The notes below the pieces were generated by a model, which made no database searches, was not told the DNA's origin, and saw only the letters and a program-made list of their open reading frames with translations. Position numbers and translations under genes: made by a program. A stretch of DNA of 64,000 nt from NCBI RefSeq assembly GCF_006345805.1, contig NC_043015.1, positions 51,770,001 through 51,834,000 of the forward strand, written 5' to 3'. This DNA comes from Octopus sinensis (taxonomy: Eukaryota). This document shows, in pieces, positions 13,878-58,409 of this stretch (the stretch's first letter is position 1; the number at the start of each line of letters is the position of its first letter).

Positions 13878-14280
13878 CAGCGAGCTGGCAGAAACGTTAG
13901 CAAGCCGGGCGAAATGCTTAGCGGTATTTCGTCTGCCGCTACGTTCTGGGTTCAAATTCCGCCGAGGTTGACTTTGCCTTTCATCCTTTCGGGGCCTATA
14001 AATTAAGTACCAGTTACACACTGGGGTCGATGTAATCGACTTAATCCGTTTGTCTGTTCTTGTTTGTCCTCTTTGTGTTTAGCCTCTTGTGGGTAGTAAA
14101 GAAATAGTTATTTCGTCTGTCTCTACGGTCTGAGTTCAAACTCCGTCTAGGTCTACTTTGCCTTTAATCCTTTTGGAGTCAATAATTTAAGTATCAGTTG
14201 CGTGCTGGGGTCGATCTAATAGACTGCCCCCCTCCCCACCAAATTTTCGGGCCGTGTGCTTAGAGTAGAAAAATATAATT
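13878..14280 (+). mobile_element. SINE N composite: tail-B copy joined to a 5'-truncated tail-A copy
   Basis: Junction GTAGTAAAGAAATA|GTTATTTCGTC at 14106/14107. Confidence 0.9.
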
Positions 14281-14789
14281 ATTCGTTCGTTTCTCGAACT
14301 ACCCACAAAAGTTTCAGGATTCCTCAATCCGATCAGAGAGGAATCGTTGATCGTTCATTATATAATAGTGCATCAGATCAAGGATTGTGTATTAATCTGT
14401 CCGAAAATCATAAGATTGTTTACGAATGTATGTCATAATCTAAATTTTGTACGACTCTCTTATTTTTTCTTTCTTTCTTTCTTTCTATCAGCCCCTTCAC
14501 ACTTCGTTGTTTCCATTCTTCTTTGTTTCGTTCCCCCTCTCTCACATTTCCTGGCTCTCTCTTCATTCTCACCTTACCTCCACTTTCACTTCACTCTGTT
14601 TCTTTTCACTTTTTCTCGTCACTCCCTAATTCTTCTATCCCTCTGCTTCTACCCCTCACCTATCTCTCCACGTGACCGGTATTCGGCCAAGCCTGGCCTT
14701 TCTTTCTTGGTTCAACTTCCATCCGTGCAACATTTATATTCTTCATCATGCCTGTCATGTTTTATGTCCCTTCCTTAAGGCTTCACTTC

Positions 14790-15180
14790 CAGGCACGAGA
14801 GCTTAATATAATTCGTCCTTTGTCGAAAGATACCTGTTATGTCCTATTATTTGCATTTGTATTTGTGTACCATTTCTCAGTTTTTTTCGTCCATGTTTTC
14901 ATATACATTCGCTGCTTTCTCCCAAGGAGTGTAGTGCTCTTAGCTTAGCTTTTTCCTTCGGGCTGGCCAGATTGGCGCAATCTCGAGTATAACCAGGCGA
15001 AATTGCAAAGAAAATCTGAAACGAAACTGAGGTAAGAAAATTTCGAATGACACATCCTTGTTTTTTCTTGACCCTTTTTTTGCATCATCTGTCTGGATGT
15101 TTTGTTGTTCCATTTTGTATCATCTACCTGTGTAAATGTTTTGCGTTCTTGACCCATTTTTTGTATTCCTTTATATATAT
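14790..15180 (+). mobile_element. Short repeat ending in (TA)n (group P1)
   Basis: GCTTAG..TTTTCCTT..GGCTGGCCAG..GCAATCTC..GAAATTGC..TTCGAATG shared with 29690-29990; left boundary uncertain. Confidence 0.65.
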
Positions 15181-16299
15181 ACACATACATATAAATATAC
15201 TCACACACACACACACACACATATATATATATATATATATATATATATATATATATACATGTTTATACATACATACTTAGATATGTGAGTTTATATGTAT
15301 GTGTGTATATATGTGTGTGTGTGTACATATATGATTAAATCTACATATATACATGTGTATGTGTATATTTATATTCATATATGTATACACACACACACAT
15401 ATATATATATCGTTTTAATTGTTATAGTCATTAACTCATTAGCTTCATTGCTGTTGTCATGTTCAAGATTCATATCCATTTTATCACCATCAGCAATTTC
15501 TCCGACCCACAATGCCACCACCACCACCACCACCATCACCACTACCACCACCGTTACCATTATCACCGCCAGCATCGCAATCATCAACAATACGAAAAGC
15601 AACAAATCCCACAGAAGCAGCAGCAGCAGCAGCAACAACAACAACAACAGCAACTGCCTGACGTAAAAAATAATCGACGTCATCAACGAAACCAATGCTA
15701 ACAAGCGACGAAGAACCTCTGAAGCATCACGTGTTGCTAAAACGAGAGGTGAGTTGGCGAATAGGAGTGAACGATGTTTGCATTGAGGGTATATATGAAG
15801 ATAAAAGAGCTCAACAAGGGAGAGAAATGTAGTTCGTGTCTCAGTATAAAATAATATTGATTGGTGGATGTTTAACATGGCTGACAGGAACACTTAAGTT
15901 GATCAACTATTTTGATTTATGGTTCGAACACTTAACGTAACGGAAGACAAGCAACATTGGGATAAATATACATCGCAATCTTTCATTGTTTAGACTGATG
16001 AATAATTGCTTATCTCTTCCTCCCTAAACCGTTTCTACTTTCTATTTGCAATCCACAACTCAAATATGTGACATCAATTTAAAAGTATGGAAAACAGGAT
16101 TGTTTATATTATAAGGTACTGAACAACGATTTCAAAGATTTCCAGTTCAAATTCACTGAAAGTTTAATTTTCGTGTGATTTATTTCAGATAGCTGTTAGG
16201 ATTTTTACCTGCAAAAGAGGGGAACTGTACGAGGCCGTTTTATTCGCGGAGATCTAGTTGGGAACACTCTCTCAAAATAATAGTCGATTTGTAATGTAA

Positions 16300-17150
16300 A
16301 TAGGTGGTCTGATCAATAAATATCCGGACTGTTGCTATGGTAACGAAGTTAAAGCACCCAGAATAATATCGCTCGGGACAGATTGATATTAAACTTTACT
16401 TTGCATGCACACGAAGTTTTATCAATCATTCCTGCTGTTTACACCAATGCTTGGAAGGAAGGAATGTAGCGTGTGATCGTGGCATTGACCATGACAGGGA
16501 AAGTTGAGCAGAGAATCTACATCAAATTTTACCAAAAGCTTGGTGATACCTGCTTAGAGGTCTTCGCAAAGTTTTCAAAAGTTTTTATCGTTCTGGACAC
16601 AACTTGTAGAACTGAAAACCGATTTTTTTTGAGTCAGCTGAAAACAATTATGGCAGAAACTTGGCTGACATATGTCTCATACCTAAATTTCTGTGGTAAT
16701 GGACTGAACTGAACCGTAACTCATCTGAACATCTTTTGATAACTCTCGGTTGGTGATTCGATGATTTCCCCCCACATCTTCATGCACATCTGCGATATTT
16801 TTCTCAGTTCTGCTAGTTGCGGGTTTCCCAGGACCTTCGTCAATATCAACATTTTTCGGCCATTTTGGAAACGTCTGAACCACTCGTACACTGGTGTGTG
16901 TCTAATACACCCCTCCCCGAACACTTTCTGCAACTCTGCGTAGGCGTCTGTCTTAGACAATGCGACGATCACACGTTACACACGTTATTTCAAAGCACTG
17001 CTGTAAACAGCGGAAGTGAGCTAGAACGTTAAAACTCAGAGCGCATGCAGAATATAGTTTACGGTCAATCTGTGCCAAGCGGATTTACTCTGCATGTTTT
17101 AGCTTCGTTACTATGGCAACTGTCCGAATACATATTGACCACGTTTCATA
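16300..17150. mobile_element. Fold-back mariner derivative made of two inverted 5' ends
   Basis: 16300-16490 is an inverted homologue of 16955-17150. Plus arm encodes EQRIYIKFYQKLG; minus arm encodes VYEWFRRFQNGR and GKPATSRTEKNI...RITNREL (mariner DNA-binding region). Confidence 0.85.
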
Positions 17151-17324
17151 ATGTAGATTTACATATACAGTAGCAGAAGAGGAGACAGAGTAGGTCACCT
17201 ATGGAACGTCTTTGATTCTATTTCTATTCAATCAGAGGTGATACTTGGTTAAATAACATAGCAATGGATTTAAAACAAAATATGAACGCTTTCCATCCAC
17301 CAAGCGTAAAGGCTACGAGATGCT

Positions 17325-56365: not shown

Positions 56366-56423
56366 TTTTTTTAAGATCTCAATGAATTCGAAATGGTATT
56401 AAAAAGAAGTGCAATATACTGTC

Positions 56424-56755
56424 AGCGCATGGCTTAGTGATTAGAGCGTCGAGCTTACGATCATGAGTTTGTGAGTTCGATTCCCAGACCGGGCTGCGTG
56501 TTGTATTCTTGAGCAAAACACTTTATTTCACGTTGCTCCAGTTCATTCAGCTGTAGAAATGAATTGCGTCATCACTAGTGCCAAGCTGCATCGGCCCCTT
56601 TGCTTTTCCCTTCGATAAAATCGATGGCTTAGAGAGGTGAGGCTGGTATGCGTGGGCGTCTGCTGGTCTTCCATAAACAAACTTGACCGGACTTGTGTCT
56701 CGGAGGGGAACTTTGTAGGTGCAACCCATGGTCATTCATTAGCGAAAAGGGTCAC
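56424..56755 (+). mobile_element. tRNA-derived SINE group T, copy 3 (different tail)
   Basis: A box TGGCTTAGTG, B box GAGTTCGATTCC, then GTGTTGTATTCTTGAGCAAAACACTTTATTTCACGTTGCTCCAG. Confidence 0.85.
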
Positions 56756-56771
56756 TCCAATATACTGTATC

Positions 56772-56980
56772 AAATTTTGGCAAAAAGCCAGCAATTTTCA
56801 GAGGAGTGATAAGTTGATAACATCGAGCACAAAGCCCAACGGGCATTTATTTTATCGACTTCTACAGAGTAGAAGTCAAAGTGAACGCCAGTGGCGTTTG
56901 ATCTCAGAACGGAAAGAGCCGGAAGAAAGGTCGCTAAACATGTTTTCGACACCCTACAGATTCTGCCAGCTCGCCGCCTT
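56772..56980 (-). mobile_element. Degenerate SINE N
   Basis: TTTGATCTCAGAACG..TTCTGCCAGCTCGCCGCCTT. Confidence 0.7.
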
Positions 56981-57068
56981 TCTGTAATTTGTAATAATAT
57001 ATGAATATTTGTGCAGGATGCAGCAGAAGCAATTGCATCTTTTCCTAGACCATTGCTGTAACGTTATT

Positions 57069-58409
57069 AATATTAAACAGATGGAAGGCGACACGATTGC
57101 AGAATCGTTAGCACGCCGGGCAAAATGCTTAGAAGCGTTTCGTCTGCCGTTATATTCTCTGTTCAAATTTCGCCGAGGTCGACTTTGCCTTTCATCCTTT
57201 CGGGATCAATAAATTAAGTACCAGTTACGCACTGAGGTCGATGTAATCGACTTAACCCGGATACGGAAATTCTTGGCCTTGAGCTAAAATTTGAAACCAG
57301 TATTCTTTTCTACTCTAGGCACAAAGTCCGGAATATTTGGGGAGGGGCCACTCAATTAGATCGATCCCAGTACGCAACTAGTACTTAATTTATCGACCCC
57401 GAAAGGATGAAATGCAAAGTCGATCTTGGCCGTAAAGACGGACGAAATACTGCTAAGTATTTCGCCCGGAATTCTAACGTTTCTGCCAGCTCGCCGCCTT
57501 AATATGAAACCAATATTCGTTTCTACTCTTGGCACAAGTCCCGAAATTTTCGTGGGAGCGGCCAGTCGATTAGATCGACCCAAGTACGCAACTGGTACTT
57601 AATATATCGACCCCGAAATGATGAAATACAAAAGTCTATCTCGGCTGAAATTGAACTCAGAATGTAAAGACATAAAATACCTATTTCTTTACTAATCACA
57701 AGGGGCTACACACACAGAGGACAAACAAGATCAGACAATCGGATTACGTCGATTATATCGACCCCAGTGCGTAACTGGTACTTATTTAATCGACTCCGAA
57801 AGGTTGAAAGGCAAAGTTAATCTCAGGGGAATTTGAACTCAGAACGTAACGGCAGAAGAAATATGGCTACGCATATCGCCCGGCGTGCTAACGATTCTGT
57901 CAGTTCGTCGCCTTAATTGAAACCAATATTAAACTCATGGAATTCGACAAACTGGTTGAATGTTTAGCACGCTGGGGAAAATGCTTAATGGTATTTCGTC
58001 CTCGGCGAGCTGGCAGAAACGTTAGCACGTCGGGCGAAATGCGTAGCTGTATTTCGTCTGCCGTTACGTTGTGAGTTCAAATTCCGCCGAGGTCGACTTT
58101 GCCTTTCATCCTTTCGGGGTCGATAAATTAAGTACCAGTTACGTACTGGGGTCGATGTAATCGACTTAATACCTATGTCTGTCCTTGTTTGTCCCCTCTG
58201 TGTTTAGCTCCTTGTGGGTAATAAAGAAATAGGTATTTCGTCCTCGTTTACGTTCTGACTTCAAATTCGGCCGAGGTTAACTTTGCTTTTCATCCTTTCG
58301 GGGTTGATGAAATTAGTACCAGTCGAGTACTGGAGTTGATGCAATCGACATGCCCCTTACCCCGAAATCGCTGGCCTTGTTCCAAAATTTTAGACCAATA
58401 TTAAACAGA
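57069..58409. mobile_element. Nested cluster of six SINE N units on both strands
   Basis: Direct repeats AATATTAAACAGA (57069, 58397), TGAAACCA(A/G)TATT (57292, 57505, 57918) and GGTATTTCGTCCTCG (57990, 58232). Confidence 0.92.

Follow-up and report, generated by a model that had tools for sequence, protein, structure and literature searches.

In a stretch of 64,000 nucleotides of the Octopus sinensis genome (contig NC_043015.1, positions 51,770,001 to 51,834,000; called the window below), copies of one family of short interspersed elements (SINEs) end directly where further copies of the same family begin, and these junctions recur at two fixed bases of the family's head. Our analysis makes it highly probable that the SINEs in question, which carry the tail we call B, share their 3' end with Tx1-like long interspersed elements (LINEs) found at the same two bases (an autonomous LINE at head base 48, and a relative with only the first open reading frame (ORF), ORF1, at head base 15), and that they are inserted into the head of their own family by the putative sequence-specific endonucleases of these LINEs. 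Sequence-specific retrotransposition into the family's own head had been proposed from the letters of the window alone. The proposal is now backed by nested insertions with target duplications and by LINEs that share tail B and occupy both bases.

The family has many copies in the window, each consisting of a box-bearing head, a common core and one of three tails (A, B or C). The 231-bp unit is dispersed, has no ORF and is flanked by target duplications of 13-17 bp; more than 54,000 exact tail matches are found genome-wide. Motifs resembling the A and B boxes are visible in the head consensus, and neither ARAGORN nor Rfam gave a match that assigns a tRNA identity to the head. The family may be akin to the Deu/Nin-domain SINE superfamily, which is marked by a central conserved Nin/Deu domain. 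In the numbering of the SINE consensus, base 48 is the start of GGTATTT and base 15 the start of AGAAACG.

The sequence-only reading counted 12 complete tail-B ends in the window, and all of them are present at their positions. Seven meet base 48 (14107 (+), 18860 (+), 36397 (-), 46912 (-), 56147 (+), 57681 (-) and 58232 (+)), three meet base 15 (19194 (+), 46743 (-) and about 56337 (+), the last offset by a few extra bases), and two are free (9628 and 36212). The junction at 14107 (+) shows the GTTATTTCG variant, and a thirteenth, truncated tail B meets the head elsewhere (19019/19020). Two features had been overlooked. The end at 58232 belongs to a visible nested insertion, with an old half-head, a young unit and a 15-bp duplication (57990-58004 and 58232-58246) that carries locus-private bases. 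In addition, the tail subtype pairs with the site: the GGGTA type goes with base 48 and the GGGCA type with base 15.

Junction counts across the genome

The 3' flanks of tail B, counted genome-wide at exact tail ends, are far from random, as the sequence-only reading had anticipated. Among 54,934 exact B1 tail ends, 23,774 (43%) are followed by GGTATTT, and among 13,392 exact B2 tail ends, 1,061 (8%) are followed by AGAAACG, counts that later copying of arrays can inflate; tail A is followed by GGTATTT in none of 5,405 cases. Base-48 sites account for 42 of 400,000 strand positions sampled in 20 stretches of 10 kb at even spacing. In loci chosen without regard to the flank, 39 of 78 exact B1 ends lie at base 48, an enrichment of about 4,800-fold. 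The SINE loci studied below were partly picked by their junction pattern, and their proportions are not those of the genome.

Could a preference for a short motif (GGTAT or AGAAA), perhaps through pairing with the 3' bases of a read-through RNA, together with the abundance of the family, produce these counts without a specific endonuclease? The duplications of free copies (13-17 bp) begin at the first flank base, and the free flanks are strongly biased, differently in B1 (GGTA 22 and TATA 21 of 76) and in B2 (TATA 12 and AGAA 10 of 48). Stutters such as GAAATA-GG-GAAATA hint at read-through bases on the RNA, and one third of the genomic GGTATTT sites (18 of 54) are in the family. However, 33 of the 35 B1 ends that adjoin GGTATTT are in the family (p-value = 5e-14) where one third would be expected, so that a preference for the heptamer alone is insufficient. 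Moreover, the base-48 LINE uses C and G heads alike and rarely leaves the family, and tail A is never found at the site. We consider motif preference a rather improbable explanation. Terminal stutters, in which two copies of the tail end are separated by one or two target-like bases, were seen at L068, L010, L084 and L101 and among the listed tail matches on C1 and C9; they suggest re-priming on RNA carrying read-through bases.

LINEs at the same two head bases

Tail B is shared with the 3' end of L1-group (Tx1-like) LINEs over approximately 48 nt; an older LINE tail aligned with tail B1 over 48 columns has 3 mismatches and 2 gaps. A LINE ending in tail-B-like sequence was first met in one random stretch, and TATC repeats adjoin the 3' ends of its family in 30 of 30 loci (short in two). 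TATC also stands 5' of truncated copies of this (TATC)n family, which is abundant (L161-L196, and many loci in G000) and includes some copies with a long open ORF2. A second family, the one found at base 48, has an ORF2 57% identical to that of the (TATC)n family and an end closer to tail B. It is a young LINE of 5.35 kb with open ORFs, and many copies have an ORF2 of 1134 codons. ORF1 is separate and of the zinc-knuckle type (PF00098 above the cut-off, no Transposase_22). ORF2 matches PF03372, PF00078 and PF13966 in Pfam and runs from an N-terminal apurinic/apyrimidinic (AP) endonuclease through a reverse transcriptase to a C-terminal zinc-binding domain, the organization of the L1 group. In the copy at L241 the endonuclease domain lies at 4756-5490. 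The nearest solved relatives are the L1 endonuclease and L1 ORF2, with L1 scoring above R2. The nearest named protein match is from Argonauta (62-65%), and none of the protein matches bore the name Tx1. Judged from its sequence, we call the base-48 LINE Tx1-like. Its ORF1 fits this assignment, as a CCHC zinc-knuckle ORF1, and not Transposase_22, links elements to the Tx1 clade (PMC5203782).

The site choice of the young LINE is near-strict. In all 30 loci found by protein similarity (one of them the query) the LINE is followed by [G/C]GTATTT. Among the first 100 of 162 tail matches listed, 92 end in GAAATT, and 80 of these 92 are followed, as judged by eye, by exactly SGTATTTYGTY, a pattern that disallows G at its last place. 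The others are mostly variants or 5' ends of related LINEs; among the matches listed, the young LINE rarely lands outside the SINE family. Of 19 older copies (82-97% nucleotide identity), 14 are at the same site, two abut the start of another LINE and three lie elsewhere. These ends also bear on the inverted repeat noted at the main junction of the window, GAAATA-GG-TATTTC. Priming by this repeat is unlikely, and we reject it as the main cause, since the LINE ends in GAAATT yet meets the same base more strictly.

The 21 full-length LINE copies are near-identical (18 have 1-13 private changes) and have 21 different heads upstream, and the first duplicated base is equal on the 5' and 3' sides in all 21 (10 G, 11 C; chance 1 in 352,716). 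The heads are therefore residents, each cut in a separate event at one base. Beyond its first base, the duplication is unequal between the two sides in 13 of the 21, too frequently for decay, and in two copies the same internal change is accompanied by a 5'-zone variant common to both but found in neither 3' flank. From these observations we infer that the 5' end of the LINE RNA repeats a short part of the target; for some of the unequal duplications, a later SINE insertion at the 3' side of the LINE is an alternative.

At base 15 we find a relative of approximately 2 kb that has ORF1 only. Of its 15 best matches, 13 have a tail, and 12 of these are followed by base 15; in four of the 12 the head bases 1-14 and a duplication stand upstream. 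A search for the LINE-type end at base 15 gave 24 matches; the 15 retrieved comprise 13 SINEs, one copy with a microsatellite upstream and one that led to the ORF1-only family. By the threshold proposed for target-specific elements, a single type of target making up over 20% of the flanks (PMC4494074), the LINE (30/30; 80/92) and SINE B1 (43%) lie above, and SINE B2 at base 15 (8%, by exact match) lies below. More distant ORF1-only relatives stand at a fixed base of a different repeat in nine loci (L329, L331, L333, L334, L336, L337, L339, L340 and L343). They suggest a target switch between base 15 and that other repeat, whose site resembles SINE base 15.

Several further LINE fragments were seen. 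At L263, L273, L265, L266 and L279 a related LINE starts directly after a LINE or SINE tail, a tandem stacking of LINEs at one site. Other Tx1-like 3' ends are followed by (ATT)n (L141:8300-8380; L110:5400-5460 (-); L077:1400-1460). The window holds a decayed Tx1-like ORF2 fragment broken by microsatellites (25888-26392 (-)). At L103, about 8900-10000 (-), a broken fragment resembles the reverse transcriptase and integrase of long terminal repeat retrotransposons, its translation being judged by eye.

Nested insertions, seamless joints and arrays

How might a tail-B RNA enter the head and leave a clean array behind? The LINE endonucleases would nick the head at 47/48 or 14/15 (the first-strand nick at 47/48 being deduced), and target-primed reverse transcription could then start from any RNA bearing the common tail. 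The complementary DNA (cDNA) of a SINE is homologous to the cut head, and its 5' end would usually close by pairing inside bases 1-63. This step would drop the second half-head, restore an intact head and stack units of 184 bp (or 217 bp); the LINE may close likewise, through the short target copy at its own 5' end. We regard 5' closure by homologous pairing within head bases 1-63 as fairly probable. A parallel is known from R2 elements, in which upstream target homology on the RNA makes 5' junctions precise through pairing of the cDNA with the upstream target; R2, however, has a restriction-like endonuclease and inserts into 28S ribosomal DNA, whereas in the octopus the homology is the SINE's own head. 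About half of the B1 copies land outside the family, at looser sites of the [G/T]RTAT type, and supply new heads, so that targets would be kept and renewed. The self-renewing target envisaged by the sequence-only reading fits this anatomy.

Nested SINE insertions carry target duplications that begin at base 48 and are private to the locus. Among the first 30 exact matches to nested SINEs at base 48, seven tandem repeats of the same loci were dropped, and 11 of the remaining 23 repeat private bases on both sides, as judged by eye. The bulk of SINE junctions has no upstream half-head. At head base 43, G occurs in 16 of 20 free monomers versus 6 of 37 seamless arrays (p-value = 6e-6), a contrast that fits heads mostly kept from the target and sometimes replaced.

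The downstream partners in the window differ in tail type and decay, and on this ground one master dimer had already been doubted. The 75 second units comprise 17 of type A, 46 of type B, 6 of type C and 6 unclassified. When the divergence of upstream and downstream units is compared, the downstream A/C unit is older than the unit before it in 28 of 36 pairs and younger in five (p-value = 7e-5). Amplification of one or two master dimers would give fixed junctions and outer duplications, both of which are seen, but the partners are mixed A, B and C with no common rare variants, the arrays hold 2-5 units, and LINEs stand at the same base. The uniform partner, shared diagnostic mutations and equal age expected of a single master dimer were not found, and we hold this explanation to be hardly credible. 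A single outer duplication around both units had been named as a sign of such a dimer. Such a duplication does enclose 35 of 68 arrays, roughly half, but this does not refute targeting, because a resident target brings its own duplication.

Local tandem duplication or unequal exchange could also build arrays. At least half of the rare variants are shared within six of 72 informative first pairs and within 11 of 53 internal ones, and long runs of 184-bp units exist. Yet most neighbours share none, many differ in tail type, and the first junction is left unexplained. As the main cause local duplication is refuted, and we give it very little probability; it may account for between a tenth and a fifth of the junctions. 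Tandem units of 65-66 bp, made of head bases 1-63 with extra A bases, precede a single SINE body in runs of as many as six (L061-L067, L070, L081-L083).

Template jumping, in which the reverse transcriptase switches between RNAs at fixed head positions and forms chimeras before insertion, agrees with the predominance of seamless joints that lack an upstream half-head and with the folding of the head as one long hairpin that places base 48 beside the apex (z = -3.8, one copy). It cannot, however, yield the head halves and duplications that flank LINEs and nested SINEs, nor account for the greater age and private decay of the downstream partners. The flanked LINE copies contradict it as the main route, and it appears very unlikely. 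The hairpin was observed in the head at 47255-47350 (-), and a cruciform formed from it could help cleavage; the junction hairpin and the LINE tail fold no better than shuffled sequences (z of -1.7 and 0.5).

A stronger competitor holds that targeting makes a minority of the junctions, and that most stem from read-through multimer transcripts of many nested or seamless sources, moved whole by their last tail. RNA polymerase III stops at runs of T, and where these are missing read-through is possible. Between base 48 and the tail the consensus lacks any stretch of four T, so the polymerase could read on. Outer duplications surround the 35 enclosed arrays, no hidden duplication was detected, a pristine C-type B1 head stands before an old A or C unit at L051, L139, L209 and L293, and at L074 three units lie within one private duplication. 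On the other side, the 23 second units of type A or C are no richer in common rare variants than 69 monomers. By their outer duplications, arrays ending in A/C (27 mismatches in 341) are nearer in age to A/C monomers (37 in 395) than to B monomers (33 in 674), with a p-value of only 0.07 against the latter. The A and C tails seem to have been mostly silent by the time the young B copies moved, only one of 51 A/C monomers being less than 4% diverged. The multimer sources themselves would still require targeting. We regard multimer transport as a possible but doubtful source of most junctions. In public contigs of a relative approximately 5% divergent, the head start and the old unit of L209 are present, and the contigs end before the young unit.

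Several observations weigh against insertion of tail-B SINEs into the head by the LINE endonucleases, or against the proposed closure. Visible nested SINE insertions at base 48 are rare (49 exact matches versus 23,774 junctions), and at base 15 only one of seven matches is clean. A test for hidden duplications in seamless pairs was negative: 4 of 57 rare variants are shared in bases 48-61, as in the body. Head divergence tracks neither neighbour, so that the age of a head does not reveal its origin, and among B-to-B pairs neither unit is consistently the older (26 versus 23). B1 ends are followed by CGTATTT just 205 times genome-wide, although the young LINE uses C- and G-type heads about equally. 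The young base-48 LINE carries a GGGCA-type tail, yet GGGCA-type SINEs are found at base 48 in only 3 of 95 cases, so that partners cannot be matched by tail subtype alone. Both mismatches could stem from activity in different eras or from read-through bases on the SINE RNA. Finally, an autonomous base-15 LINE was not found, though no protein search aimed at one was made.

With insertion by the LINE endonucleases as the preferred reading of the junctions, it is tempting to go one step further, and we lean slightly towards a closed loop of parasite and hyperparasite. In this loop, Tx1-like LINE endonucleases are directed against two head bases, the SINE has captured the LINE tail, the LINEs make their own landing sites, the SINE stacks by homology-guided joins, and one tail serves a LINE radiation with at least five targets.

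Relation to known elements and features of the window

The feature is a variant of target-specific Tx1-type retrotransposition, new in that the SINE's own head is the target. Zepp, a retroelement of green algae, uses a conserved site within its own copies for insertion. Like the octopus SINE it nests in its own family, as an L1-group element, but it is autonomous and forms one cluster per chromosome (PMC3446292), whereas the octopus SINE is non-autonomous, is both cargo and target, and occupies dispersed loci. Target-specific Tx1 families are known in Tx1D (Tx1), in U2 genes (Keno) and in microsatellites (Kibi and Koshi) (PMC4494074). They share with the present case an AP-endonuclease LINE, a fixed base and a multicopy target, and the (TATC)n sister family (30/30) is a further likeness; here, in contrast, the target is a mobile SINE apparently amplified by the LINE group itself. 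The closest parallel that we can draw is SINEU of crocodilians with its Tx1-Mar partners (Kojima 2015, PMC4494074), where the SINE shares its target preference with Tx1 LINEs, different Tx1 families prefer two sites in one repeat, and SINEs stand in sequential tandem. The SINEU target is an unrelated Mariner transposon and its tandems sandwich a duplication; the octopus SINE uses its own head at single-base precision, has a tail visibly derived from a LINE, and forms mostly seamless joints. Head-to-tail arrays of one SINE family are also known from bivalves and squamates (PMC11481361), where they make up about 3% of copies in the richest bivalve and are discussed as unequal recombination between duplications; Tx1 is absent from the main text of that paper. 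Octopods contain L1-Tx1 elements and tRNA-Deu SINEs, the latter a main SINE class of octopus, and the available text of that report mentions no targeting (PMC8967140). The available part of PMC4758252 has nothing on this SINE family. In the literature covered, which lay outside most subscription papers, Tx1 target surveys, octopus SINE papers, supplements and Repbase or Dfam entries, we saw no description of a SINE being targeted by its own partner LINE, nor of a LINE or SINE targeting this head.

A target-specific LINE aimed at the non-autonomous element it appears to carry may bear on the dominance of SINEs and the formation of arrays in octopus genomes. A near-strict young family, with sisters of 57% identical ORF2 that have other targets, opens AP-endonuclease specificity and 5' junction formation to test, and the base-48 LINE is a compact candidate for site-specific gene insertion. 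Should the closed loop be true, one tail with at least five targets would offer a ready-made set of LINEs in which to trace how an AP endonuclease selects its site. In repeat libraries, these arrays would be wrongly classified as dimeric subfamilies or satellites.

The tail-B units of the window and their partners are collected in Table 1.

Table 1. Positions of SINE units and their junction partners in the window
Feature	Position	Strand
Free tail-B SINE monomer, control case	9629..9859	-
Tail-B (B1) unit, ~5% from consensus, seamless 5' end	13876..14106	+
Older tail-A unit from head base 48, ~14% from consensus	14107..14277	+
Tail-B unit, head strongly decayed	18636..18859	+
Two tail-B units: one from base 48 (truncated at 19019), one at atypical head position	18860..19193	+
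Old unit from head base 15, end approximate	19194..19340	+
Tail-B1 unit	36398..36628	-
Tail-B2 unit from base 48, own end free	36213..36397	-
Tail-B1 unit	46913..47142	-
Tail-B2 unit from base 48	46744..46912	-
Tail-A unit from base 15	46582..46743	-
Tail-B1 unit, GCGTAGCCG-type head	55916..56146	+
Tail-B2 unit from base 48, then short head fragment from ~base 15	56147..56360	+
Tail-B unit	57682..57912	-
Tail-A unit from base 48; pair with 57682..57912 inside 18-bp outer duplication	57514..57681	-
5' half of old resident head and 5' duplication copy (57990-58004)	57945..58004	+
Young near-full-length tail-B unit nested at base 48, ~1% from consensus	58004..58231	+
3' duplication copy (58232-58246) and rest of old tail-C target	58232..58401	+

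Tail-A units also stand in tandem in the window, with a repeated spacer of at most 18 bp between them (18170-18639 (+); 57300-57930 and 46360-47350 (-)), as if tail-A SINEs re-inserted at the site of their own earlier duplication. The old heads at 18636-18700 and 19194-19260, 560 bp apart, have rare variants in common over about 50 bases; this exceeds the length of a target duplication and falls outside our model. A second tRNA-like SINE family is represented by a copy at window position 13375. In the head of this family, elsewhere in the genome, tail-B copies with duplications are found four bases apart (L016:1500 (-) and L054:1500 (-)).

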